Shown piece by piece: positions 4,980-31,715 of a stretch of DNA of 64,000 nt. Position numbers and translations under genes: made by a program. The notes under the pieces were generated by a model, which searched no databases, was not told the origin of the DNA, and was given only the letters and a program-made list of their open reading frames with translations. Source of the DNA: Asaia bogorensis (GTDB taxonomy: Bacteria > Pseudomonadota > Alphaproteobacteria > Acetobacterales > Acetobacteraceae); the NCBI GenBank assembly GCA_945873195.1, contig CAMCDA010000004.1, positions 1,923 through 65,922 of the forward strand, given 5' to 3'. Within the stretch, counting starts at the first letter, position 1, and each line of letters starts with the position of its first letter.

Positions 4980-5258
4980 TTGGTATCCATGCATAAGGCA
5001 CGCAACATGAAAATCATCACTACGCTCATTCTGGCCGGCACACTCGGCCTCGTCGCCGCCTGTGGATCCAGTGAGCCCGGCCGCGTCCAGGGCGCCGCCG
5101 CGACAGGGGCCGCCACCGGCGCGACGGTCGGTCTGGTTGGCGGTCCCGTGGGCGTCGCCGCGGGGGCCGTGATAGGCGGCGGGGCCGGTGCCATAACCGG
5201 CGCCAGCACCACCCCCGCGCAGGTCGATCTGGGTAAGCCGGTTTGGGACAAGAAGTAA
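4980..5258 (+). CDS. Small glycine-zipper lipoprotein
   Basis: Lipobox LVAAC, then GAAATGAATGATVGLVGGPVGVAAGAVIGGGAG. Confidence 0.8.
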   Translation: MVSMHKARNMKIITTLILAGTLGLVAACGSSEPGRVQGAAATGAATGATVGLVGGPVGVAAGAVIGGGAGAITGASTTPAQVDLGKPVWDKK

Positions 5259-5390
5259 TACCCGGGCCGCAACCACCGTCACGGCGCCGTCCATCCGGGC
5301 GGCCCGTTTCGCTCGAAGCTTGATCATACCATCCGAAATTATATCGGTACGCATTCCCCGACCAACGCCATTGAAGGACACTCAGACATT

Positions 5391-10807: not shown

Positions 10808-11989
10808 TTACAGGAACGACCCGTCCGGGTCGCCGTGGAACATGACCCGGCCGACCGCCTCGAAATGCGCGTCGCGGGCCTGGATTTGTTGGGACAGCGT
10901 GTGCATGTCGCGGAACCGCCGCTCGAACGGCGTGCCGAGGAAGATCGCCGACACGCCGGCGGCCTTGTAGACATAGTCCGCGATCTCGATCGCCGTGTTG
11001 ATGCCGTGGGCGCAGCCCAACCGCACCCGCATCCGCTCGTTGGTGCCGATCGGTTCGATGTCGTCGGCCGATTCCCAGATATCCTTCAGGATTTCCGTCA
11101 GATAGGCCCGCGCGGCGCCAACGTTGGCTTCCCGACGGGCGAGATCGGCCTGGACGATGGGGCTGTCGGACAGGCGGATATGGCCGCGTGGCACCTTGTC
11201 CTTTGCCAGGCTTGTGAAGGAATCCAGCATGGCGCGGGCGATGCCAAACGCGACGCCGGCGACGCCCACCGCGTACAGCCCCTGCATTGTGAAGGCATAG
11301 AGTGGCCCGCGATCCCGCCGCAGAGCCGGGTCCTCGCGTGTGCCGGTGAAACCCTCCGGCACGAACAGGTCGGTGACCGAATAGCCCTCGGACGCCGTGC
11401 CGCGCATGCCCAGCGTGTTCCAGTCATGGATCGGCGTCGCGTGGTGCTTGGGGAACAGCAGGGTCCGCACGGTCGGGCGGCCGAACCGGTTCAGGCGCAG
11501 CGAGCCATCGGGTTCCTGCACGTTGCAATGCGCGCCCATCCAGTTCGCCTGGCGCGACCCGCTGGCGAAATGCCACTGGCCGGAGACGCGGTAGCCACCC
11601 TCGACCGCGATGGCCCTGTATTGATTGGGCGGTCCCCAGGCGATCCAGCCGCGCTTGTCGCCGAAGATCGTCTGTGCCGCCGGCAGCGGAATGAACGGCG
11701 CGATCAGCGCGGCGCTGTTCGACACGAACAGGTTCCAGCCAACCGAGCCATCGTGGCGGGCGATTTCCTCGATCGCGCGCATATAGACCCACGGCTCCAC
11801 CTGGTCGCCGCCAACTGATCGGGGCAGCAGCATCCGCGGCAGGCGGGCGTCGTGGATCTGGGACAGGACGGGTTCGGGGATGGCCTGCGCCCGCTCGATC
11901 TCATCCGCGACCGCTGCGATGGCGGGGCCGACATCCCGCGCGCGGGCAACCGGGTCCACCCCGAGAGAAGACGCGCCGATATGGTTCAT
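10808..11989 (-). CDS. Acyl-CoA dehydrogenase-fold flavin monooxygenase (HsaA-like)
   Basis: VSGQWHFASG, WNTLGMRGTAS, ERRFRD. Confidence 0.88.
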   Translation of the reverse strand: MNHIGASSLGVDPVARARDVGPAIAAVADEIERAQAIPEPVLSQIHDARLPRMLLPRSVGGDQVEPWVYMRAIEEIARHDGSVGWNLFVSNSAALIAPFIPLPAAQTIFGDKRGWIAWGPPNQYRAIAVEGGYRVSGQWHFASGSRQANWMGAHCNVQEPDGSLRLNRFGRPTVRTLLFPKHHATPIHDWNTLGMRGTASEGYSVTDLFVPEGFTGTREDPALRRDRGPLYAFTMQGLYAVGVAGVAFGIARAMLDSFTSLAKDKVPRGHIRLSDSPIVQADLARREANVGAARAYLTEILKDIWESADDIEPIGTNERMRVRLGCAHGINTAIEIADYVYKAAGVSAIFLGTPFERRFRDMHTLSQQIQARDAHFEAVGRVMFHGDPDGSFL

Positions 11990-12083
11990 GGGGCCGTTCC
12001 GTCCGAGTTTCCGTGCTGATTACCGGCCCCGTTTGGCTGGATTGTCAACGGCCGGTGATATCCCAGCAAAACAATTCCCGCGT

Positions 12084-13259
12084 GTGCTTCATTGCTTCCC
12101 TACCCCGTCGTTCGTTAAGACGGGGCGTTACGTCAGGCGCGGCCGAACCAGCGGGAGATGGCGCATTTCGCTCAGGGTCATTCGACATGTTCGTGGGCCG
12201 CGCTCGGTTTGGCGGCGCATCCGCATCCCGGCGGTGCTGGCGTTGCTGTGCCTGGTTGGGGTGACGGTCTGGGCTGTCCGCGAACGGGCCTCCGCCCCGG
12301 CCAACCCGGTCGAGACCCGCGTCGAACCTGTGCGCCAGGCCCGTAATCCGCCGACCCGGATCGAGTCCCGGCAGGTCCCGCTGCCACCCGGGGACTGGCG
12401 CATGCTCGCGCGCATCCCGGCGGAGGGAGAGGAGTCCCAGGCGCCCCAGGCCAGCATGGTGCTGGTGCGGCTGAACGGGCGGGATGTCGATGCCGCCGTG
12501 CTGGTGCAGGTCAATCGGTTGGGCCATCGGGTGCATTGGGGCCTGCCGCCGGCCTGCGCGCGGGACGATTTCATCCCCCGCCGCGTGCTGTATGCCTCGG
12601 ATCACGACGGGTCCTGCGCCTATGCCGCCTTCGCCGATGGCACCGGGCCGCTGACCGGCGTGCCGATCGACCCAGCCTGGCAACGCGCGATGCGAGAGGC
12701 CGTGGATCGCGGCTGGAACGTGCCGGCGACATGGTTGGCGGTCGTGTTCCGCAAGACAGATCCGGAAGATGCGCTGCAGATCCGGTATCTGTTTCATCCC
12801 TGGCCGATCGAGCAATCGCAGCCGCCGATCTCGGCCGCATGGCGCCGGATTCAGGCGGATCGGCTGGCGTTGTGGATCGAGGCCACGGCGCCCCGGGTCA
12901 GCGCCGCGTTCCGCGACCGCCTGCGCACCGGGCTGGACGCGACACTGACCGACCCGGAACAGCCGGTCGGAAAGGACGGTGATCCGACCAAGGACCGCGA
13001 CGCCGCGGCTCTGGATGAGGCCAGCCGAACCAGCACCGCGCGGGCGATGTCCTATCGGATGTTCGCCTCGATGGCGGATTTCGGGGTGCTGTGGCTGTAT
13101 CTGGGCAATGCCGTGACGGCATCGACGCTGGCGACGCTGAAATTCGCCGCGCAGGGGGCGACGAGCGCCACGCATGAGTATGTGTGGTCGCTGTTGGCGC
13201 CGCCGATCGCACAGCATGACCTGCCGGGCGTGGGCGTGGAAACCCCGCTGCCGCGCTAG
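12084..13259 (+). CDS. Membrane-anchored protein: unknown Cys-containing domain plus C-terminal DUF2061-like hairpin (start uncertain)
   Basis: N-terminal TM (PAVLALLCLVGVTVWAV); QVPLPPGDWR...C...CAYA domain; C-terminal RAMSYRMFASMADFGVLWLYLGN...THEYVW. Confidence 0.7.
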   Translation: MLHCFPTPSFVKTGRYVRRGRTSGRWRISLRVIRHVRGPRSVWRRIRIPAVLALLCLVGVTVWAVRERASAPANPVETRVEPVRQARNPPTRIESRQVPLPPGDWRMLARIPAEGEESQAPQASMVLVRLNGRDVDAAVLVQVNRLGHRVHWGLPPACARDDFIPRRVLYASDHDGSCAYAAFADGTGPLTGVPIDPAWQRAMREAVDRGWNVPATWLAVVFRKTDPEDALQIRYLFHPWPIEQSQPPISAAWRRIQADRLALWIEATAPRVSAAFRDRLRTGLDATLTDPEQPVGKDGDPTKDRDAAALDEASRTSTARAMSYRMFASMADFGVLWLYLGNAVTASTLATLKFAAQGATSATHEYVWSLLAPPIAQHDLPGVGVETPLPR

Positions 13260-18466: not shown

Positions 18467-19992
18467 TGCAGTTGCGCCATCAGGCGGGAGCCATTGATGA
18501 CGATGCGCGCGCCCGCGGCCACACCGTCCACCACCAGGATGGAGGTGCCGTCGATCACGCGGGTTCGCACCGGGTGCGGCACGAAGGTCTCGGCGGCGGT
18601 CTGTTCCCAGACTTCCTCGACGCCCGAACTGCCCTGGGTCACCGCGGACCGGTTCAGGAGGATGCCGCGCTGGCTCTGGCCGGTGTTGACGACGGTCACG
18701 CTGACCGGCCGGCCGACGCTCAGGCCGGCGGGCGGATTTTCGATCCGGTACATGATTGGCGTGGACTGCCGAGCAACCGAGAGGCCGGAGCCGACAAAGC
18801 GCAGGGTCAGGTTGATGCCTTCCGGGGTAGTGGCCGCGGCGACCGGCGTGCCGCGCGCGGCCTCGGCGATCGCGGGATTGGACGCGGTGGCCTCGATCCA
18901 CAGGCGGGTCGGATCGATGACCTCGAACATCACCTCTCCGGGCTGGACGATCCGGCCGTTGACGGCCGATGTCGTGGAGACGATCCCGTCGGTGAGCGCG
19001 CGCAGGGCTTCGCGCAATTCCAGCATCGGCAGCAGGGCATCGCGTTCGCGGCGGAGGCCGGACAGGCGCTGTTCGGCCTGGTAGATCTTGCCTTCGCGGA
19101 ACGGCACCCAGGTGAACTGGCGCAGGATTTCCAGCGCCTCGGTTTCCAGGCGGATGTCGGTGGTCAGGCGGGTGACATCGCGGCGGACCTGGCTGCGATC
19201 GACGACGCCGATGGATGGCGACACCCAGGCAAGCGTCTCGCCCTGCTTCACCGCCTGGCCCAGGGTCGGGAAGCCGGTATCGGGCGGTTCCAGCCGGCCG
19301 GGCACGCTGGGCTGCACCGTGCCGTGCAGCGACGGGTCGGGCACGATCCGGCCCGAGATCTGCCGGACATCCGGGACATCGATCACGCGGGCCTGCTCGG
19401 TGCGGACGTTGAACAGACGTTGCAGCGGTTTGGGCACGAAAAACGACCCGTCTTCCCGCCGGTTGCTGCGGTCGTAGACGAAATTGGCGATCAGGCCGGG
19501 ATCGACCTCATCCTGCGGGCCGATCGGCATGGTGGGGGAGGGCGGGATCGCCGGCTGCTCGGGCATCCGAGCGGCGGCGCGCAACGGTTCCATCACGGGC
19601 GGCGCGGACGCCGGCGTCGCGGCTGGCACGGGGCGTGGGCGAGGCGGCGGTTCGGCGGCGCGGGGCGGCAGGATCGGCGTGGAGTTGACCCCCAGCAGAT
19701 ACGACACCTCCCACAAGAACTGGCCTGTGCCGCCGGGGATATTGGCGATGCCGGTGGCGGTCCAGGCGATCGCGTCCAGCGTCGCGCCCACGGCGGAGCC
19801 CAGATAGGACCCGGTCGCGGCCGGTTTTGGCGGCGGCGGCGCGGGCTGGGCATGGGACCTCAGGGACGGATCTTCCTCCGGCACGCGGTCGGCGATGCTC
19901 CGGTCCTGCAAACCTTGCGCCGGCACGAGGCTGGTGGAGTAGGCGATCACCGCAACCGTCAGCGTGGCCAGGCGCCACGGCGCGCGCATCAT
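18463..19992 (-). CDS. RND periplasmic adaptor (MFP) with a long Pro-rich N-terminal extension
   Basis: ISGRIVPDP...VQPSVPGRL...LGQAVKQGETLA; LRALTDGIV...GRIVQPGEVMFEVIDPTRLWIEA. Confidence 0.9.
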   Translation of the reverse strand: MMRAPWRLATLTVAVIAYSTSLVPAQGLQDRSIADRVPEEDPSLRSHAQPAPPPPKPAATGSYLGSAVGATLDAIAWTATGIANIPGGTGQFLWEVSYLLGVNSTPILPPRAAEPPPRPRPVPAATPASAPPVMEPLRAAARMPEQPAIPPSPTMPIGPQDEVDPGLIANFVYDRSNRREDGSFFVPKPLQRLFNVRTEQARVIDVPDVRQISGRIVPDPSLHGTVQPSVPGRLEPPDTGFPTLGQAVKQGETLAWVSPSIGVVDRSQVRRDVTRLTTDIRLETEALEILRQFTWVPFREGKIYQAEQRLSGLRRERDALLPMLELREALRALTDGIVSTTSAVNGRIVQPGEVMFEVIDPTRLWIEATASNPAIAEAARGTPVAAATTPEGINLTLRFVGSGLSVARQSTPIMYRIENPPAGLSVGRPVSVTVVNTGQSQRGILLNRSAVTQGSSGVEEVWEQTAAETFVPHPVRTRVIDGTSILVVDGVAAGARIVINGSRLMAQLQ

Positions 19993-21086
19993 CGCGTTTC
20001 CGTCCCAGCTGTCTGTCGGGTCGCCTGGGCTTCGGTCACGGCATAGGCCGAGATGGCTTGCGCGGCGCGCGCGGCCTCGGTCCGTTCTCCCGCGCTTTTG
20101 ACCCAGGTTTCCGCCTGGCCGCGCCAGGGCGAATGGGTCAGCAGCGTCGCGACTTCAGCCATCCGCCCTTCGGCCGCCAGCAGCCGCAGCCGTTGCAGGA
20201 AGCTGGCCTGCGGATCATCGGCCCCGCCGAACAGCGCGCGCAGGCGGGACCAGCTTGATCCGTCCTGGCCGAGCGTGGCGGCGATGGATTGGTCGAGCGC
20301 CTCGAAGGCGATGGCGAGGTCGCGGATCGTGGCCACGCCTTCCGGCAGGTCGCGCAGCGTATCGACGGCCAGGGCGATCGGCTCGGGGTAGGGGCCGTTC
20401 AGGTCCATCAGCGCGACGCCCTCGCTCAGCGGCGACCCGGTATCGACATCGCGGCGCAGGCGGGTGGCGGCGGCAAGCAGGGCGGCGGCGCGCACCCGGG
20501 CGGCAAGCACCTGACCCGCGGCCTCGATCTGGGTCATGCGCTGGCCGGCGTCCTGCGCCGCGCGCGCGGCGCCCGCGAGCTCGGTGCGGTTTTCGCGCAC
20601 GGCCGAGCCGGTTTCGATCAGCCGCCGGTCGAGCTGGCGGATATCGAGGCGCAGCCGCAGCATCTCCGACTCGAGGCCGGCGACGCGGGGGATCAGGGCC
20701 GCGACGTCGCGGTCGGTCGGGTTTTCCGGGGTCAGGACCTCGGTCAGCTTGCCGGCGGCGTCAGTGCCCAGGACGGTTGGCGCGTGGGCGACCAGCACCG
20801 GGCGCAGCGACGGGGCGGCCAGCGCGATGCAGGCGGCGGCGAGCGCCACGGTCGCGAACAACCCGCTGGCCCAGGCGCCGCGCGCGCGCTGAGGGGGGGA
20901 GGGAACATCGGTCGCGGGATCGGGAACATCGGTCGCCAAGGGTCGCGCGTGGGTTGCAGGCGCGGGATCGTTATCGTTGCGAGACTCAGGCAGGGGGAGC
21001 GGCGGCGGTTCGGCCCGCGCGCGGTCGCCGCGATCCCGGATCAGAACGTTCAGCCCGCCCGGCAGTGCAACAGGTTCATCGGCCAC
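19989..21086 (-). CDS. Mitofilin/Mic60-like (COG4223-like) TM-coiled-coil protein, copy 1
   Basis: Pro-rich N-terminus, TM, heptad coiled coil, then LRRDVDTGSPL...EGVATIRDLAIAF...W...W..A..R..A pattern; ATGA overlap with the MFP. Confidence 0.65.
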   Translation of the reverse strand: MADEPVALPGGLNVLIRDRGDRARAEPPPLPLPESRNDNDPAPATHARPLATDVPDPATDVPSPPQRARGAWASGLFATVALAAACIALAAPSLRPVLVAHAPTVLGTDAAGKLTEVLTPENPTDRDVAALIPRVAGLESEMLRLRLDIRQLDRRLIETGSAVRENRTELAGAARAAQDAGQRMTQIEAAGQVLAARVRAAALLAAATRLRRDVDTGSPLSEGVALMDLNGPYPEPIALAVDTLRDLPEGVATIRDLAIAFEALDQSIAATLGQDGSSWSRLRALFGGADDPQASFLQRLRLLAAEGRMAEVATLLTHSPWRGQAETWVKSAGERTEAARAAQAISAYAVTEAQATRQTAGTETR

Positions 21087-23603: not shown

Positions 23604-24779
23604 GTGTCCGTTGCACAGACCTGGAAAACGCTCCGTATCTTCGTCAATCGCCGCCTGTCCGCGCGGCGTGGGCGCATCAATCCCTGGCGCGATTGGGCCA
23701 CAAGCGCGGTGGTCCTCGCGATCGGCATCGGTGTCGGGGTGTCGTGTCTGCCGGGACACCCGACGCAGGGCCCCTCGGCCGCCACGCTGATCGATCCGCA
23801 GCCCAATGGCGGCGGCATCGCCCCCGCCGTCTTCGCGCTGCGTGACAGCGGCGCGGCGGTCCGTTTCGCGAATGCCGAGGCCCGGCCGAACGGCCAGATC
23901 CTTGTCGGCTTCTACAACGCCCTCGACCCGCTGCTCGCCACCGCCACCGAACCGGTTCTGCTTCCCGCCGATGCTCGGCTGCTGTGGCTGCTGGCATCAC
24001 CGGGGGAGCGTCAGTCGATCCGCGACCGCGCGGCGGCCCTGGTCGTGGCGCTGTCTTCGGGCGGGCGCGATATCGTCACGTCGCCGGAGTTCGCCGATCA
24101 CTACCGTGACCGTTTCCTGGAGGTGTTTCAGGTTGCCGCCCGTTCGGCCTGGGTGGTGACGCAGGAAAGCGGCGCCTGGCGCGCCTTGCTGCGCGGGCTG
24201 GAACCGGCGATGCGCGACCTCGGTGACCGCGACATCCGCCCGGTGGTCGAACGGCATTTTCGCGTGGTCCCCGGCCGGATGCTGCGCGCCAACGCCTTCG
24301 CGATGCTCGATCCCTTCACCGACCGACCCTGGAACATGACCCCGGTGGAGGACGCGCTGCGGTCCGCGCTGCTTGAACTGCGGGATCGGGAGGTGCCGGA
24401 GCGGATGGTCGCGCATCTGATGGCCTCCCCCCAGGCCGCGACCTTCCTGCGGCTGTATCAGGATGAGTTGGTGCGCCAGCTCGCCCATGATGGCGCGCTG
24501 CAAGGGCTGCTGGCCGAGATGGCCTTTGATGAGCGGTTTCGTCCCTATGCCAACGGCATAGTCGATCGCGCCAACGACCTGGCCCGCTTCGCGCCGCGTC
24601 TGCTGGTCAGCCTGCGCGGCAGCAAGGACCTGAACCTGGTGGCCGCCACCGTCATCCGGGCGACCATCGCCGGGCGGGGGGACCGTGTCGTTGTGTTCAT
24701 GAGCCGATCGCAACGGGATGAGCTGGCGGCGCTGGATCGGTACGCGGTGCAGCCGCTTGAGAGGAAGGGGCGCTCGTGA
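23604..24779 (+). CDS. Hypothetical single-TM/exported helical protein
   Basis: TM SAVVLAIGIGVGVSC; GTGA overlap with the ABC-MlaE gene. Confidence 0.72.
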   Translation: MSVAQTWKTLRIFVNRRLSARRGRINPWRDWATSAVVLAIGIGVGVSCLPGHPTQGPSAATLIDPQPNGGGIAPAVFALRDSGAAVRFANAEARPNGQILVGFYNALDPLLATATEPVLLPADARLLWLLASPGERQSIRDRAAALVVALSSGGRDIVTSPEFADHYRDRFLEVFQVAARSAWVVTQESGAWRALLRGLEPAMRDLGDRDIRPVVERHFRVVPGRMLRANAFAMLDPFTDRPWNMTPVEDALRSALLELRDREVPERMVAHLMASPQAATFLRLYQDELVRQLAHDGALQGLLAEMAFDERFRPYANGIVDRANDLARFAPRLLVSLRGSKDLNLVAATVIRATIAGRGDRVVVFMSRSQRDELAALDRYAVQPLERKGRS

Positions 24780-26323
24780 GCGACAGCCGGATGGCGGCGC
24801 GCGACGGGCTTGTCGCGACGGCGGCGCGCGACGGGCTTGTCGCGACCGGTCTTTCGATCACCCGCCCGGATGGCATTCCCATCCTGCGCGATACCGAGCT
24901 GCGGATCGGCGCGTCCGAGGTCGTGCTGCTGGTCGGCCCCAGCGGCTGCGGCAAATCGACCCTGCTGATGCTGTTGGGCGGGTTGCTGGATCGCGGCAAT
25001 GGCTGGCAGGTATCGGGGCAATTGTCGTGCGGCGACCTGCGGATCGACCTGGCCGAGGAACAGGCCGGCGTCGGCGGCGTGGTGTTCCAGAGCCATGCGC
25101 TGTTCGACGAACTGGATGCCGAGGCCAATCTGCGGATCGCGCGCGACCACGCGGCGGCGAATGTCGCGCCGTCGCTGGCCGCCGCCATGCTGCCGATGCT
25201 GGAGGATATCGACCCGCACCAGGCCGTCAGCGCCAGCAGCGGCGGGCAACGCCAGCGTTTGGCCATCGCGCGCACCGTGCTGACCGACCAACCGGTGCTG
25301 CTGTTCGATGAGCCGAATTCGGGGTTGGACATCATCTCCTCCCGCCGGCTGGTGGAACTGATCCGCGGCCTGTGCCGCACCATGGGCAAGCCGGCGCTGA
25401 TCGCGGTGCATCACGCCTCCGAACTGCTGCCGGTGGCCGATCGCGTGCTGGTGATGGACCCAATCCGCGCCACCTTGACCGAGGTTGCGCCGCGGATCGA
25501 GGCGTTGGAGGCCGGCCTCACCATCGCCACGCGGGCCGATCCGACCGAGGAACGGCCCCGTTCTCGGGGGCGCTGGCGGCTGGGCTCCTCGGCGGCGCCG
25601 AGGAACACGCGGCTGTATTGGTTCACCCATTACGTGCTGGGCTACATGTGGCTGCTCTGCGCGTCGCCGATCATGTTGATGTATATCGCGGCTGGGGCCT
25701 GCATTACCGGGTTTGTCACGATCTGGTTCGGGTTCAACTACTATTCCTATGGTGGATTGCTGAAATCACTGCTGCATGATGAGACCTTGGTGGGGCTGGG
25801 AACGGTGCAGGCGCGGGTGGCGCTGCCCTTGATCACGACGATTCTGTTCGTCGCGCGCAACAGCGCGGTGATCGCGGCGGATGTCGGTAACCGGGCGCTG
25901 ACCGCGCAGTTCCAGGCGATGGACAACCTGGGCATTCCAGGCCGGCTTTATGTGTTTTCGGGGATCATCATCAGCATGGGCGTTGGCTCGGTCGTGCTGA
26001 TCGTGCTGGCGGTGCTGCTGGGCGCCTGGGCCTCGCAGGAAACATGGATGGTACAGTTCCCCAACCAATATCGGGAGTTGTTTCGCAGCCTGTTCTTCCG
26101 TAATGTTATCTCGCCATCCGGTTGGCCGTCCTCGGCGATGGGTTGGGTGGTGGCCAAGGCGGCGATCAGTGGATTGCTGGCCTCGATCACGTCGATCATC
26201 ATCGCGCTGGGGCCCAAATCATCCAGCCTGGCGGTCAGCCGGTCGGTGGCCAACGCGATTGTCGTGGGCGTGATCGTGGCGCTTTTGGTGCATGCGGTGA
26301 TTTCGGCGCTGACAGCGGTCTGA
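24776..26323 (+). CDS. Fused ABC ATPase plus MlaE-like permease
   Basis: GPSGCGKST, SGGQRQRLAIAR, LLFDEPNSGLD; C-terminal LPLITTILFVARNSAVIAADVG...QFQAMDNLGI and AVSRSVANAIV match the MlaE pattern. Confidence 0.82.
   Translation: MSDSRMAARDGLVATAARDGLVATGLSITRPDGIPILRDTELRIGASEVVLLVGPSGCGKSTLLMLLGGLLDRGNGWQVSGQLSCGDLRIDLAEEQAGVGGVVFQSHALFDELDAEANLRIARDHAAANVAPSLAAAMLPMLEDIDPHQAVSASSGGQRQRLAIARTVLTDQPVLLFDEPNSGLDIISSRRLVELIRGLCRTMGKPALIAVHHASELLPVADRVLVMDPIRATLTEVAPRIEALEAGLTIATRADPTEERPRSRGRWRLGSSAAPRNTRLYWFTHYVLGYMWLLCASPIMLMYIAAGACITGFVTIWFGFNYYSYGGLLKSLLHDETLVGLGTVQARVALPLITTILFVARNSAVIAADVGNRALTAQFQAMDNLGIPGRLYVFSGIIISMGVGSVVLIVLAVLLGAWASQETWMVQFPNQYRELFRSLFFRNVISPSGWPSSAMGWVVAKAAISGLLASITSIIIALGPKSSSLAVSRSVANAIVVGVIVALLVHAVISALTAV
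24793..24846 (+). repeat. Perfect 27-bp tandem duplication (AARDGLVAT x2), in frame
   Basis: ggcggcgcgcgacgggcttgtcgcgac at 24793 and 24820. Confidence 0.95.
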
Positions 26324-26378
26324 CCGGACCCTACGATACTTTCACGGCGCGTATATCGGTTCTTGAGGAGTGACAGGC

Positions 26379-27161
26379 ATGGATCGGGATGACCAGGCAC
26401 ATGAGCGCGCGGCGACGATGCGATCGATGAAAATGCTGGCCGGGGCGGCGTTGATCGTCTCGCTGACCGGGCCGCTTTGGGTACCGAACATCCTCGCCAC
26501 TCTGAATTTCCGTTCCTCCGCCGATATCGCCGCCGAACGGAACCGGGACGACATCGTCCGGCTGGAGCAAGGCTCCGTCGGGTCCGAGCAGCGACTGAAG
26601 GCGGCCGAGGCCGCGGTGGCCAAGCTGCGGGAGGACCTGGGCCGCATGGAACAGCGGATGGCGGCGATGCGCGACGCGCTGGCCGCCGGCGCCGCGGCCG
26701 ATCTCGCGGCGGCGCTGCGCTCCGATGGCGGGTTCATGGCGGAACTGGCGGCGTTGCGCGCGGTTGCGACTCCCGCCCCCGATCTGACCGACATGCTGGC
26801 CATGATCACCCCCTTCGCGGAAACCGGGGTGCCGGGCGCGCGTGAAATCCGCCAGCGCTTCCTGCGGGAGATGGCGGGCGCGGGTTCGGCGCAGGGCGGT
26901 TCGCCGTTCGCCTGGCTTCGCCGGACGGTGCTGCTGGCGCCAGATCCGGTGGCTCAGGACGTGAACCCGCATTTGCTGGAAGCCGAGACCCTGCTGCGTG
27001 ACGACGACCTGCTGGGTGCGATGGCCGCGGCCCGCCGGATCGAGGCGCCGCGCCCCGACTGGCTGGGGGCCTGGCTCGCGGATGCCCAGGCGCGGTCCGC
27101 GGCGGATGCGCTATTGCCCCGGCTGGATCGCTGGACGGCCGTCGCCGCGCCCAAGCCATGA
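26379..27161 (+). CDS. Mitofilin/Mic60-like protein, copy 2
   Basis: GAGGAG RBS; TM; coiled coil; LAAALRSDGGFMAELAAL...FAETGVP...LLRDDDLLGAM...WLADAQARSAAD. Confidence 0.75.
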   Translation: MDRDDQAHERAATMRSMKMLAGAALIVSLTGPLWVPNILATLNFRSSADIAAERNRDDIVRLEQGSVGSEQRLKAAEAAVAKLREDLGRMEQRMAAMRDALAAGAAADLAAALRSDGGFMAELAALRAVATPAPDLTDMLAMITPFAETGVPGAREIRQRFLREMAGAGSAQGGSPFAWLRRTVLLAPDPVAQDVNPHLLEAETLLRDDDLLGAMAAARRIEAPRPDWLGAWLADAQARSAADALLPRLDRWTAVAAPKP

Positions 27162-27451
27162 GGCCGCGCCGGACGTTGGCCGGCCTGGCGCTGGGGGTGT
27201 CGCTGTTGGCCGGCGGGCCGGTGTCGGCACAGGTCGTTGTGGAACGCGACGTCATCGTCGTGCGCCAGGGCGGCGTGACCGAGGCGATGATCTCGGCCTG
27301 CGCCGGTGGCGCGGCGATCGGGGCGGTGATCGTCTGGGGCAGCGGGACGGGAGCGGTGTTGCCGACCGCCGGGTTGTTCTGTGGGCTGTCGGTGGCGGCG
27401 ACCATTTCGGCCTCGGTGGCGACTTATGCGTGGCGCTCGCTGCCTTGGTGA
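27158..27451 (+). CDS. Small signal-peptide / Gly-zipper membrane protein (97 aa)
   Basis: ATGA overlap; SACAGGAAIGAVIVWG...AGLFCG. Confidence 0.72.
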   Translation: MRPRRTLAGLALGVSLLAGGPVSAQVVVERDVIVVRQGGVTEAMISACAGGAAIGAVIVWGSGTGAVLPTAGLFCGLSVAATISASVATYAWRSLPW

Positions 27452-27529
27452 ATTGCGCGCGACCGTGACCGGGGCCTACGATGCGCCGAGCGTTTGCATA
27501 AGCATCGGCGGGCGGGGAAGGGGTTGTCC

Positions 27530-28216
27530 ATGCACACCGTGATGTTGGCCAAGCAGAAGGGCGGCGTGGGCGCGAGTACCATCGCGCGGGAGATCGGGGT
27601 GCTGGCCGCGCGCAACGGGCAGCGGGTTGTGTTCATCGACCTCGATCCGCAGGCGACTCTGTCGAAATGGTGGAACCGGCGCACGGCTGGCGCGAACGGC
27701 ACGCCGAACCCGGCGCTGGCTGCGGTGAAGCCAGACCAGTTGCTGACCGTGCTGGGGCAGTTGGCCGCCAGCGGCGGGGTGGATCTGGTGGTGATCGACG
27801 TGCCGCCCTCGATCCACAGCTTCATCCGGCGGGTGATGGACGCGGTCGATTTCGTGCTGGTGCCGGTGCGCCCGACCTCCGACGATTTCGAGGCCTTGCC
27901 GGAAATCGTTGAGATGATTGAGCAAGCGGGCCGGCGCTATGCCTTCGTCGTGACCCAGGCGCCGACGGGCCGGCGGATCCGCGCGGTGGATGAGGCGATT
28001 CCGATCCTGGCGCGCCAGGGCCGGGTGGCGGGCGTGCTGCGGTTCCGTTCGGCGTTCCCGGCGGCTGCCTCGGCGGCGCAGGTGACGACCGAGTTTGAAA
28101 CGACTGGCAAGGCCGCCGCCGAAATTCGGGAGCTTTGGGCTTTCGTGAAGGCTGAACTGCGGAAGATTGATCGGGCGGCCGCGGCGGCGGCGCCAGAACT
28201 GGCGAAGGCGTCCTGA
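27530..28216 (+). CDS. ParA-family ATPase with atypical Walker A (KGGVGAST)
   Basis: KQKGGVGASTIA, FIDLDPQA, VIDVPPS, VLVPVRPT; GGGGAAGGGG RBS. Confidence 0.88.
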   Translation: MHTVMLAKQKGGVGASTIAREIGVLAARNGQRVVFIDLDPQATLSKWWNRRTAGANGTPNPALAAVKPDQLLTVLGQLAASGGVDLVVIDVPPSIHSFIRRVMDAVDFVLVPVRPTSDDFEALPEIVEMIEQAGRRYAFVVTQAPTGRRIRAVDEAIPILARQGRVAGVLRFRSAFPAAASAAQVTTEFETTGKAAAEIRELWAFVKAELRKIDRAAAAAAPELAKAS

Positions 28217-28239
28217 GCGGCGGATGAGGAAAATTCAGG

Positions 28240-29670
28240 ATGGCCCGTAAATCGACGGTGAAGCTACCGGACGTGTTCGCCAAGCCCGGTCAGGCGCCGT
28301 CGCGCGGCACGCCGATCGAGGCCCTGCCGCGGGAGGGGGAACCGGAGCCGTCGGCGGCTGAACCCGTGCCTGCTTCGGCGGTTGCGGAGCCGGGTCCCGT
28401 GGCCAGCGCGGCGCCGGTCACCGGTGATGATTCACCGGCGTCCTGGGCGCTGGCATCTCGGCCGGCCCTGGTTGCCGGCGGGCCTGATCGCGGCCAGCCG
28501 CCCGTTGTCCCGCCGCGTCATGTCGTCGTGCCGGAAGCTGCCACCCCCGACGTGCCGGCATCGGAGTCCCCCCTGCCGAACCCTGTGAGCGGTTCGGCGG
28601 CCTCGGCTGATGCCGTGCCGACTCCGCCGGAAGCCGCCCCGGTTGCCGAGGCCTCCCCCGTTGGAGAGACCCCAAGCGCGCTGCCCCCCATTATCGCGGC
28701 ACCTACCGCCGCCCCGCTGGCGAGGCCCGTGGTTCCCCCGGCGGTCGTCGCTCCGCCTGTCCCGCCAGCGCCCACATCGACGGTTCCATCGGCGGTCCCC
28801 CCGACGGTCCCCCTGGCGGCCCCATCAACGCCCCCACCGTCCATGTCCCCGCCCGCAACGCCCTCGCGTCCGGCGCACGCCGAACCGCCGCGCCCCGCCG
28901 TCACCCTGCCATCTCCGCGCGGGCCAGCCTGGACCATCGCCATGCTCGCCCTCGGGGTCAGCCTGACGACCCCGTTCTGGTATGACGGCGCCCTCCGCCT
29001 CCTCGGCCTCACCACCACGGTCGGCCAGGCCCAGCAGGAAGACGCGCTCGCCATCTCGCGGCAGGAGCGCAAGCTCCGCGACGTCGAGCAGCGCCTGACC
29101 ACGACCGCGACCCAATTGACCAGGGCACAGGCCGACCTGACGCAGGCCGTCCGCAAGCAGGAGGAAACCGCGGCCTGGACCCGCGTCATGATCCTGGCCC
29201 GCCTCGGGGAAGCCTTGCGGCGCGGCACACCCTTCGGGCCCGAACTCGCGATGGCGCGCGGGGCGAGGGCCGCGACCGGTGACCTGACGCCGTTGCTGGA
29301 CCGGTTCGCGCCCTACGCGCCGATCGGCGTGCCGACCACCCAGGACCTCGGTCAGGATTTCCGCCGGGTCACCGACCCTGTGCTGCGGCCGGCCCGTGGG
29401 CTCAATCCCCTGGCCTGGGCCGCGACGGTCATCGCCTGGACCCCCTTCGGCCGGCCCGCGCCCGAGACCGACCCAGGCCGTCTGGCCCTGCGAGAGGCCG
29501 CGAGCCGCGTGCGCGACGGCGCCGTCACCGATGCGGCGACGATGCTGCGCCCCGTCACCGGCCCGGTCGCGGACCTGATGGCCGGCTGGCTCGCCGATGC
29601 CGACGCCCGGGCGGCGGCGGATGCGTTCAATCAGCGCATCGACGCCCTCCTGCGCGCCGGCCCCCGCTGA
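28240..29670 (+). CDS. Mitofilin/Mic60-like protein, copy 3, with a ~220-aa Pro/Ala-rich N-terminal region
   Basis: TM (WTIAMLALGVSLTTPFW), coiled coil, LGEALRRGTPFGPEL...GVPTTQDL...F...WLADADARAAAD. Confidence 0.78.
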   Translation: MARKSTVKLPDVFAKPGQAPSRGTPIEALPREGEPEPSAAEPVPASAVAEPGPVASAAPVTGDDSPASWALASRPALVAGGPDRGQPPVVPPRHVVVPEAATPDVPASESPLPNPVSGSAASADAVPTPPEAAPVAEASPVGETPSALPPIIAAPTAAPLARPVVPPAVVAPPVPPAPTSTVPSAVPPTVPLAAPSTPPPSMSPPATPSRPAHAEPPRPAVTLPSPRGPAWTIAMLALGVSLTTPFWYDGALRLLGLTTTVGQAQQEDALAISRQERKLRDVEQRLTTTATQLTRAQADLTQAVRKQEETAAWTRVMILARLGEALRRGTPFGPELAMARGARAATGDLTPLLDRFAPYAPIGVPTTQDLGQDFRRVTDPVLRPARGLNPLAWAATVIAWTPFGRPAPETDPGRLALREAASRVRDGAVTDAATMLRPVTGPVADLMAGWLADADARAAADAFNQRIDALLRAGPR

Positions 29671-29692
29671 TACGCCCCCGCTGATACGCCCC
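29661..29692 (+). repeat. Perfect 14-bp tandem duplication spanning the stop codon
   Basis: cccccgctgatacg at 29661 and 29675. Confidence 0.9.
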
Positions 29693-29703
29693 AGGTGATC
29701 TGA

Positions 29704-31715
29704 TCAGCGCGCCTCGGGGCCGATATCGGGGAAGCTGGCCGGCAGGAGGGCCGCCCGAGCGCCCCCCGCCCCCGCGCCGGCCCAGCCGATCTCATTTGCA
29801 TAGGCGATCATCGGCTTGATCACGGCATGGGCGTTGGCCAGCGTGAAGCTCTGCGCCGCATTGCCCGTCACCACCCAGGTCGTCGCGACCGTGTCCAGGT
29901 AGGCGGCGACGCGATAGGTGCCGACCTTCACCAGCGTCCGGCTCCAGAGCGACCAGCCTTGATGTTCCGGCTGCAACGCCGAGTCCTCGGCCGCCCGCGC
30001 CAGGCGATCATGGGTCTCGGCGTCGATCGCCCCGGCATCGCGGAGGCGATCAACCGGCGCGCGGGCCTGGCGAAGCAGCAGCCGGCGCGCGGTGTCGGCC
30101 GTATCCGGTGCCGGCAGCGCCGCGAGGCTCCCGGTCAGGGTCTCGGGCAATCGTCCCCGCGCGCCGAGTTCCAGCGGTTCCCGCAGCAAGCTGCTCCAGG
30201 TGACGATGGTGGCGGGATCGTCGGTGGAGTCGGGGAAATAATACCGCGCGTCCAGGAAGTTCTCCCGCGTCCTGGTCCGCCCGGTTGCCTCCAGCATGAT
30301 CGGCGGCACGACCACGCCCTCGGTCCGCAGCCGATCCCGCGCGGCGGCCCATAGCGGCTCGCCGCCGGGCTCGTCCCGCGGGATGACCCGCTTGACATAG
30401 GCGCAATACCCGTCGCGAGGCGTATCGAACGCGACCTGCACGGAAAGCAGGTCGGTGCGCCCGCATTCAGCCGGGGAGCCGATGATATTGGCCGTCGGCG
30501 CGCCATTGGCCCGCGCGATCACCAGCCCCCGCAGCGCGCCGGCCTCGATCCGCCCGAACACCGCGCCGGCCTGTTGCGGCGTGTCCTCCCGCGCCAGTTC
30601 CCGCCAGGTCCCGGGCGGCATCGGGATTTGCTTGCCGGCGACGACGGGAGTCGGTGCCGCGGCGATGCCCGGTGTGCCCATGGCCGGTGTGCCCATGCCC
30701 GGTGCGCCCATGCCCGGCGCATCCGAGGCCGGCGGCCCTGACCTGCCCGCCAGGGGGCCGGACAGGTTGATGATCGGCGTGGTGGGGGGCGTCTCCCACA
30801 CCAGTTCATTGACCATGAACACCGCGCTGTGCGTGACCATATTCCAGGTCTGCACCCAGGTGCCGGTGACCACGCTGCCAGTGACATAGCTGGCCAGGAC
30901 CAAGCCGATGGCGGTGTTCATCACGCGATAGCCGGCCAGCCGATACAAGCTCCGGGTCAGCGTGGTGGGCTCCTCGGCGTGCTCGTCTGCCCCATCCGCC
31001 GCGAACAGCAGGACCGGCATGGGCATTCTGGCATCGGGCGCGACCGGCGCGCGCATGGCGGCCAGCGTGGCGCGCCGAGCGGTCTGTGCCCAGTCGGAAA
31101 GGCGGCGGAGGGTCGCGGCGTGGGCGGTGTCGAGGCCCGCCGGACCCTCTGCCCAGGCCGCCGGGTCCGGTGAGGACGGGGACACGCCGAGGCGCATGTC
31201 GATCATGTCGCGCCGGTCGGAGACCCGGAACCCCGCGACAAGTGCCCAGGGCGGCAGCGTGCCTACGGCTTCGGCCGGCAAGGCGGGCAGCAGCGTGCCG
31301 ACGCGGTGCGGCCCGCGCGCGAAGGACACGAAGGCACAGCCCTCATGCAGGTCGCGCGATTCCGAGATCTGGGTAAAGAGCGTGCCCTCACAGGATGGCG
31401 ACGTCCCCCATCCGTCGCGGGCCGGCAGGGCATTGGTCTGGACCAGCAGGAAGGCGCGGTCGCGGGGTCGGGGCGGACCAGCAGCACGCCCGCGGTCACG
31501 CTGAGCAGGGTCCCGTTCGCGGCTTTCGCCGACCCGTGGCCGCTGGCCGCGATGCGCCAGGGGCCTTCGGGCAGGGGTATGGTCTTGCCGGCCAGGGTCA
31601 GACGCCCTGTGACGGTATCCCCGACAACGGGTGCATCGGCGGCCAAGGCGGGGCCGGCAACCATGGCGAGTAGCAGGGCGAACCATGGCACCAGAGCGAT
31701 GAGTTTGCGCGTCAT
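29704..31715 (-). pseudogene. Exported/membrane protein with two tandem [unknown Cys domain + DUF2061-like] units, interrupted by a 1-nt frameshift near 31465
   Basis: The signal peptide and TIPLPEGPWR are in one frame (ORF 31263..31751); the continuation DRAFLLVQTN...C...CAFV is in the other (ORF 29704..31686); RSLYRLAGYRV...NELVW and RTLVKVGTYRV...NEIGW are DUF2061-like. Confidence 0.7.
30665..30720 (-). repeat. 15-bp x ~3.7 tandem repeat encoding a Met/Gly/Pro linker (PGMGAPGMGTPAMGTPG)
   Basis: atg(c/g)ccggtg(t/c)gccc units at 30665, 30680, 30695 and 30710. Confidence 0.85.

Follow-up and report, generated by a model that had tools for sequence, protein, structure and literature searches.

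A ParA-like gene paired with a membrane-anchored Mic60-like partner in Acetobacteraceae, probably descended from a plasmid partition cassette

We analysed 64,000 nucleotides of an Asaia bogorensis assembly (GCA_945873195.1, contig CAMCDA010000004.1, positions 1,923 to 65,922; this whole stretch is referred to as the window, and its G+C content is approximately 67%). At the 3' end of a plus-strand operon of overlapping or closely spaced genes, the window encodes a small ParA-like protein and, directly downstream, a partner that joins a basic N-terminal arm to a transmembrane (TM) segment and a divergent mitofilin domain (the C-terminal domain of Mic60). This arm has homologues in the N-terminal tails of ribbon-helix-helix (RHH) proteins encoded beside sister ParAs on plasmid-like contigs. 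We class the pair among the ParA/MinD adaptor systems; its cargo adaptor is of a new type and its active-site motif is unusual. We propose that the pair positions Mic60-like assemblies in the envelope or secures their inheritance, and for that whole statement, drawn from sequence comparison, we estimate a probability of roughly 0.55. The locus has its closest named relatives among Acetobacteraceae metagenome-assembled genomes (MAGs).

An original prediction, made from the letters of the window, had described a parA gene followed after 23 nt by a gene whose product has no helix-turn-helix (HTH) or ParB domain, but instead a basic arm, a Pro/Ala-rich disordered linker of about 200 aa, a TM segment and a mitofilin-like domain. 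We found this description to be correct in each part. A TTG at 27494 could also open the ParA-like reading frame (open reading frame, ORF), but the ATG given in Table 1 is taken as the real start because homologues begin MHTVML and because this ATG follows GGGGAAGGGG; the partner begins with an ATG 23 nt past the resulting stop codon. Searches of the partner against Pfam and NCBIfam returned no domain, and hence no RHH, HTH or ParB domain. Its arm (MARKSTVKLPDVFAKPGQAPSRGTPIEALPRE) has an isoelectric point (pI) of 10.3, and the linker that follows is 49% Pro plus Ala with a pI of 4.4. In an AlphaFold model built from the family alignment, nearly all of residues 1-222 lack secondary structure and score below 50 in predicted local distance difference test (pLDDT; approximately 40 for the arm), after which come helices at residues 229-243 (the TM segment) and 258-328 (about 70 residues) and a C-terminal helical bundle. 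The C-terminal 254 aa modelled alone reached a pLDDT of 84.5. By hydropathy, the TM segment is among the most hydrophobic windows of the protein, about equal to a Pro-rich stretch of the linker that is no TM candidate, and it is conserved both in the partner and in a 263-aa paralogue that lacks the arm and is encoded two genes upstream of it (BLASTP 31% identity over 232 aa, E 3e-15). Together the model and the hydropathy give the partner the layout of Mic60, with an N-proximal TM segment, a coiled coil and a C-terminal mitofilin domain.

The label "mitofilin-like" is confirmed for the partner, through profile comparisons only. Pfam Mitofilin (PF09731) gave no match to the partner itself at E<=0.01. 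Searched against 1.84 billion representatives, a profile of the partner C-terminus matched 4437 proteins at E<=1e-3, and in all 10 of 10 sampled long matches exactly the aligned region scores above the cut-off of Pfam Mitofilin. The profile of the partner family reached canonical Mic60s at E of about 1e-17 to 1e-25, and hhalign of the same profile against the genome's own Mic60 gave E 4.5e-4 over the last approximately 110 residues, which include GWLADA. That canonical Mic60 is encoded on a different contig beside a hemY-like gene and scores 26.3 against the PF09731 cut-off of 27.4. Several of the sampled Mic60 matches are fusions with HemD, in keeping with the classic hem locus (P0093, P0107, P0136 and P0145 are examples of Mic60 fusions), and one canonical Mic60 is fused to an N-terminal EIIA-HPr-EI module of the phosphotransferase system, an odd cytoplasmic extension. 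A 365-aa protein encoded at the head of a membrane fusion protein/resistance-nodulation-division operon (19989-21086, minus strand) aligned weakly to the partner family by hhalign with E 4.4e-4 and a probability of 34%; it may tentatively be called a third mitofilin-like paralogue, and the direct search of the genome missed it.

Alphaproteobacterial Mic60 has its N-terminus in the cytoplasm and its C-terminus in the periplasm. Because the partner has no signal peptide and carries a 230-aa region ahead of the TM segment, its mitofilin domain should by analogy be periplasmic and its N-terminus, arm included, cytoplasmic.

The origin of the arm is indicated by sister loci on plasmid-like contigs. 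Their ParAs are 54-73% identical to the ParA of the window and share with it an alanine at the P-loop lysine position (see below). RepA_C is present on all three representative sister contigs: one, from Acidisoma silvae, also encodes a MobA/MobL relaxase and a type IV secretion system coupling protein, while the other two have a resolvase, joined on one of them by KfrA. Another group of sister loci has resolvase, integrase and transposase genes and no replication gene. Each plasmid sister ParA is followed by a protein of 111-125 aa with an RHH-like C-terminus, which scores 19-26 bits against Antitox_RHH, under the cut-off of 27.2. The tails of these small proteins align with the arm of the window partner in the same register from residue 1 (L036, MPGKPRPQIADVFARPGAAPARGRAVEDFPR; L035, MAAKPKPTRIPDVFARPGAAPSRGRAVEDLPR; L031, MDATKKRPSVVASGLLARPGAAPARSTPVEDLPR; window, MARKSTVKLPDVFAKPGQAPSRGTPIEALPR; L and G numbers are our labels for loci and genomes). 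BLASTP of the arm against an RHH partner aligned residues 8-32 of both with 13 of 25 identical (52%, E 2e-6), and a hidden Markov model made from the Mic60-type arms alone and run against 2179 ORFs matched just the N-termini of the RHH proteins (E 5e-15 to 5e-8).

Because the arm is homologous to the RHH tails of the sister plasmid ParAs, the module in all likelihood descends from a plasmid cassette of the type Ib parA/parG-like kind, and its anatomy would be derived from that cassette. In a tree of ParAs, the 13 Mic60-paired proteins form one group (support 92/99), with the plasmid ParAs outside it. The simplest reading of the origin of the arm is a single domain swap, in which the partner gene would have kept its 5' end, encoding the ParA-docking tail, and exchanged the RHH DNA-binding domain for a tether, a TM segment, a coiled coil and a mitofilin domain; the part swapped in would be most like the arm-less 263-aa paralogue of the same operon.

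Some of the plasmid cassettes have sites of their own. All four loci of the subgroup L030-L033 have a palindrome (TAGCGTCCTA/TAGGACGCTA) upstream of parA, and L030-L032 carry it immediately 3' of the RHH gene as well (L030, 6928-6937 and 8048-8065; L031, 6843-6852 and 7963-7980); L033 has a perfect 56-bp palindrome upstream of parA (5228-5283). These Acetobacteraceae plasmids are uncharacterised, and the TAGCGTCCTA/TAGGACGCTA palindrome probably serves them as centromere or operator. We did not find TAGCGTCCTA in the window, even with one mismatch allowed, nor in any of the 34 other loci fetched, and the spacer upstream of the window ParA-like gene has no repeats. The plasmid palindromic sites are lost in the window module, and no array of repeats flanks its two genes, in agreement with the original prediction, which had seen no parS-like repeat array near the genes.

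To this ancestry is added a conserved adjacency. In every locus that includes downstream DNA, approximately 15 independent loci or genomes (metagenome contigs L001-L005, genome contigs L009-L012, six further Acetobacteraceae genomes and L034), a ParA-like gene is followed by an arm-bearing Mic60-like gene. The pair occurs in three contexts. At most loci it lies within an operon with the MlaF-MlaE fusion, the paralogue and the 97-aa protein; in L004 it stands alone beside rho; and in L012 and L034 it is beside tetratricopeptide repeat genes, which lie downstream of the pair in G308 as well. The genes for the 391-aa protein and MlaFE are absent beside the pair in L004, L012, L034, G071 and G330, and the last two genomes encode the arm-less paralogue at a distance of 1.3 Mb or on a separate contig. 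As the surrounding genes vary between loci, the unit is the pair and not the operon. The module lies in a chromosomal-looking context, for example on large contigs of 183-768 kb. At L034 (5900-6870, on a 768-kb nanopore-assembled contig) the partner orthologue is an uncalled gene split by a frameshift, probably an assembly error, and the cluster contigs L010 and L013 are labelled as Nitrosovibrio and Bifidobacterium MAGs, probably through mis-binning.

The adjacency of the ParA-like gene and its partner is far beyond chance, and the two genes remain neighbours in other genomes even where the rest of the operon is missing. Within the partner, the arm is the only near-invariant cytoplasmic part: its first 30 residues fit MA[RKQ]KPxxxL[PKR]DVFA[KR]PGxAPxR[GN]T[PA]IE[AD]LP, while the linker varies from approximately 90 to 330 aa among homologues and has no conserved sequence. 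The C-terminal domain is approximately 30-70% identical across clades in which the ParA-like protein is 72-92% identical. That the two proteins are mere neighbours, with the arm conserved for another purpose such as membrane insertion or regulation, is hardly credible given that the arm is homologous to the RHH partner tails of sister ParAs and that the adjacency survives three changes of context. The original prediction had proposed the arm as a ParA-engaging peptide on a transmembrane adaptor with a Mic60-like domain, and both the homology to the plasmid tails and the conservation of the arm strongly support that proposal; physical contact between the arm and the ParA-like protein, taken on its own, is likely on these alignments. 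The last step of the prediction, from such an adaptor to a positioning system for membrane invaginations, is more speculative.

The ParA-like protein matched Pfam AAA_31, CbiA and MipZ, all above their cut-offs, and NCBIfam NF041546 (ParA_partition) over its full length with 127 bits, below the cut-off of 180. Its closest PDB sequences are Soj (E 3e-10) and ParF/TP228 ParA (4dzz and 5u1g, E of about 4e-8). A C-terminal MinD-like membrane-targeting helix was looked for on this protein and none was seen; the C-terminal ...LA[KR]AS is conserved in the nearest clade only. Walker A' (DLDPQ) and Walker B (LVVIDVPP) align with those of Soj and are both conserved. The Walker A motif differs: where Soj has QKGGVGKTT, the window protein has KQKGGVGAST, in which the signature lysine of KGG is retained, the P-loop lysine is replaced by alanine and an extra lysine stands two residues before the signature lysine. 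We surveyed this motif in the 120 best homologues (53-100% identity) from 5.8 billion proteins, in 3 of which it could not be read. The P-loop position is Ala in 116 of the 120 and Ser in 1, and wherever the motif was readable the signature lysine is conserved and the extra lysine present (117 of 117), plasmid ParAs included. The clade motif is thus K[QE]KGGxGA[ST]T, plasmid partition members among its carriers, and a normal KGGAGKTT is first met in a ParA of only 38% identity.

In standard ParA/MinD proteins, a change of the P-loop lysine to alanine abolishes ATP binding. The alanine is the main difficulty for our proposal, since a classical ATP-driven ratchet may not operate with it. Loss of ATPase activity through this change was considered as the main explanation of the module and set aside, as apparently functional plasmid partition sisters have the same change; for the same reason the alanine is not taken as proof of inactivity. 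The shared alanine of the plasmid sisters weakens the objection without removing it. Family members whose key lysines are sited elsewhere have been noted in a review (PMC11407121), and the clade-specific extra lysine is a candidate for such a relocated key lysine.

Two other readings take the alanine further. In one, the ParA-like protein would work without hydrolysis, and perhaps without binding ATP, as a static scaffold or switch, a dimerising hub that clusters or regulates the Mic60-like protein with no patterning on the nucleoid, comparable to TadZ/CpaE at pilus machinery. The clade-wide alanine fits such a hub, and family members with atypical active sites, TadZ for example, do act as localisation factors (PMC11407121). 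Like TadZ/CpaE and other ParA/MinD members with an atypical Walker A, which lack or have relocated key lysines and still have localisation roles (PMC11407121), the window protein departs from the standard motif; unlike them, it belongs to another clade, has other partners and shares its variant with plasmid partition ParAs. The presence of the same alanine in sister ParAs of seemingly intact plasmid cassettes, with RepA_C and, in one subgroup, palindromes, argues for a working ATPase, and the conserved Walker A' (DLDPQ) and Walker B (VVIDVPP) and the very high ParA identity across genera also tell against a static hub, which we regard as unlikely. The other reading keeps an active machine: a ParA-type system would spatially arrange MICOS-like, Mic60-based structures of the envelope, or crista-junction-like ones, by way of a ParA clade that has dispensed with the P-loop lysine, its lysine being relocated or supplied by the arm. 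Candidate sources would be the extra lysine before the signature lysine or, in trans, the nearly invariant arm residues K4, K/R15 and R22. We hold this specific form of the idea to be doubtful. If true, it would give Walker-type cytoskeletal ATPases a new catalytic arrangement and membrane organisers of the Mic60 type their first active positioning system.

In the positioning system that we favour, the ParA-like protein would dimerise in the cytoplasm, probably bound to the nucleoid as its plasmid sisters would be, and the dimer would bind the basic arm of the inner-membrane partner, which would modulate the nucleotide cycle of the ParA-like protein. The variable tether would let a membrane-embedded partner reach an ATPase on the nucleoid surface. 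How Mic60-like assemblies are distributed, spaced or inherited in the envelope would then be set by the cytoplasmic ParA pattern; these assemblies may be membrane-shaping structures or contacts between the inner and outer membranes. Both the binding to the nucleoid and the positioning function are inferred.

Besides the P-loop alanine, several observations weigh against this proposal. The TM segment of the partner is only moderately hydrophobic; the periplasmic placement of the Mic60-like domain is argued by analogy with alpha-Mic60 and from the absent signal peptide; and a Foldseek search of the PDB with the C-terminal model returned no match at E<=0.001, with the long helix dominating the query. 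The module is also sparsely distributed: of the Acetobacteraceae genomes sampled, 8 of 401 contained it, belonging to 4 of 143 genera, counts that are a floor under a stricter filter. Only one of four congeners gave any match, and this was the arm-less paralogue and not the pair.

The same distribution bears on two further readings. If the cargo were the chromosome, a DNA-bound ParA-like protein would be held to the inner membrane and, via the Mic60-like domain, to the outer envelope, making the module a tether between nucleoid and envelope. Its ancestry in a DNA-partition ATPase and the long flexible linker, which could bridge membrane and nucleoid, would suit this role, but neither a specific DNA site nor a DNA-binding partner is present, absence from most relatives means that this is not a core chromosome function, and most loci lie within an operon for envelope and lipid transport functions; we consider it improbable. 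Alternatively, a chromosomal ParA copy with a membrane-tethered decoy arm could disturb the partition of incoming related plasmids, an exclusion of the incompatibility type. Plasmid ancestry, patchy distribution and more than one genomic context would fit such interference. A decoy needs neither a strongly conserved periplasmic mitofilin domain nor a TM segment, however, the module is operon-linked to envelope genes, and the ParA closest to that of the module in the genome is 34% identical to it, so that we judge interference very unlikely.

Compared with known systems, the module resembles type Ib ParF-ParG of TP228, with which it shares a small HTH-less ParA, a partner gene directly downstream and, in the partner, a flexible basic tail homologous to the RHH partner tails of the sister cassettes. 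It differs from type Ib in that the partner has 476 aa and no RHH or other DNA-binding domain, with a linker, TM segment and mitofilin domain instead, in that there is no centromere or operator repeat, and in the Ala at the P-loop Lys position. As a rule, the partners of ParA/MinD ATPases work by way of a disordered N-terminus that is positively charged (PMC10241942). McdA-McdB, ParC-ParP, PpfA-TlpT, PomZ-PomXY and MinD-MinE likewise combine an ATPase with an adaptor that has a charged disordered N-terminus and otherwise belongs to the cargo (PMC10241942, PMC11407121); to these the ATPase and adaptor described here are homologous at superfamily level at most. In contrast to those systems, the adaptor is an integral inner-membrane protein with a main domain predicted to be periplasmic, and an integral-membrane Mic60-like cargo class is absent from the two reviews (PMC10241942, PMC11407121). 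With alphaproteobacterial Mic60 the partner shares the N-terminal TM segment, coiled coil and C-terminal mitofilin domain and the profile link; unlike Mic60 it has no direct Pfam match, is encoded outside the hemC/hemD/hemY locus, has a predicted cytoplasmic N-terminal extension of 230 aa that includes a ParA-type arm, and forms a pair with an ATPase. Mic60 paralogues dedicated to special membranes are known, for example one from a magnetosome island (bioRxiv 10.1101/2022.06.14.496148).

We found the family in Acetobacteraceae only. No close ParA relative was found outside Acetobacteraceae in 400 alphaproteobacterial genomes with 7 candidates scored per genome, which makes this a floor, and PLSDB plasmids likewise held none, the best match being 41% identical and belonging to ordinary plasmid ParAs. 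A search with the arm in the set of 5.8 billion proteins found the same family only, under a length filter that left out the small RHH proteins (these came to light afterwards from their gene context); the arm is carried by approximately 14 representative clusters at 50% identity. In the literature on ParA together with Mic60 we found no description of this pairing.

Table 1. Features of the operon and of the ParA-like/Mic60-like pair in the window.
Feature	Position	Strand	Basis or remark
391-aa protein, no assigned family	23604-24779	+	Operon head; linked context, outside the core pair
MlaF-MlaE single-chain ABC fusion	24776-26323	+	Pfam ABC_tran and MlaE; linked context, outside the core pair
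263-aa arm-less paralogue of the partner (TM, coiled coil, mitofilin-like)	26370-27161	+	BLASTP and synteny
97-aa membrane protein	27158-27451	+	Operon-linked in most, not all, genomes
ParA-like P-loop protein, 228 aa, small type Ib-like, without N-terminal HTH	27530-28216	+	Pfam, NCBIfam and PDB matches
Variant Walker A, KQKGGVGAST	27551-27580	+	Alignment to Soj
23-nt spacer with ribosome-binding site GAGGAA	28217-28239	+	Read from the sequence
Partner, 476 aa	28240-29670	+	ATG at 28240 after GAGGAA, 23 nt past the ParA stop
Partner N-terminal arm (aa 1-32), putative ParA-docking peptide	28240-28335	+	Conservation and homology to plasmid RHH partner N-termini
Pro/Ala-rich acidic disordered linker, predicted cytoplasmic (aa 33-226)	28336-28917	+	Composition, pLDDT
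TM segment and conserved flanks (aa 227-250; RGxAWxIAxxALxVSLTxPxW)	28918-28989	+	Model helix, hydropathy
Long single helix or coiled coil (aa 258-328)	29011-29223	+	AlphaFold models
Divergent mitofilin (Mic60 C-terminal) domain, ending ...MAGWLADADARAAAD...	29236-29658	+	Profile link

Some details of the surrounding genes were also recorded. No MCE/MlaD gene was recognised near the MlaF-MlaE fusion, whose N-terminus contains a 27-nt tandem duplication (24790-24843), so that AARDGLVAT is encoded twice. An exact 14-nt tandem direct repeat in two copies (GCCCCCGCTGATAC, 29660-29687) spans the stop codon of the partner. Large proteins with DUF2061-like ends flank the conserved envelope cluster (29704-31686 on the minus strand and 11880-13259 on the plus strand); the one of 660 aa is syntenic in L010 and L011, and in L001 and L003 a 578-aa multi-TM protein takes its position.

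ParA/MinD ATPases place DNA, carboxysomes, chemoreceptor arrays, flagella and the divisome, and an integral membrane protein with a periplasmic domain of the Mic60 type would be a new class of cargo for them. That the partner kept what is probably the ATPase-docking tail of a plasmid DNA-binding partner suggests that a DNA-segregation motor has been re-used to place or tether a structure of the cell envelope. The module would also illustrate how such systems arise: the docking tail of a plasmid centromere-binding protein would have served as a portable "luggage tag" and been transferred to a membrane organiser. The textbook motif is called into question by the loss of the Walker A lysine throughout a clade whose plasmid partition genes apparently work, and motif searches with KGGxxK[ST] miss this clade of ParAs. 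Mic60 is the ancestral core of the crista-organising system of mitochondria, and a bacterial Mic60 paralogue coupled to a positioning ATPase would offer a direct handle on the distribution of Mic60 assemblies in bacteria.

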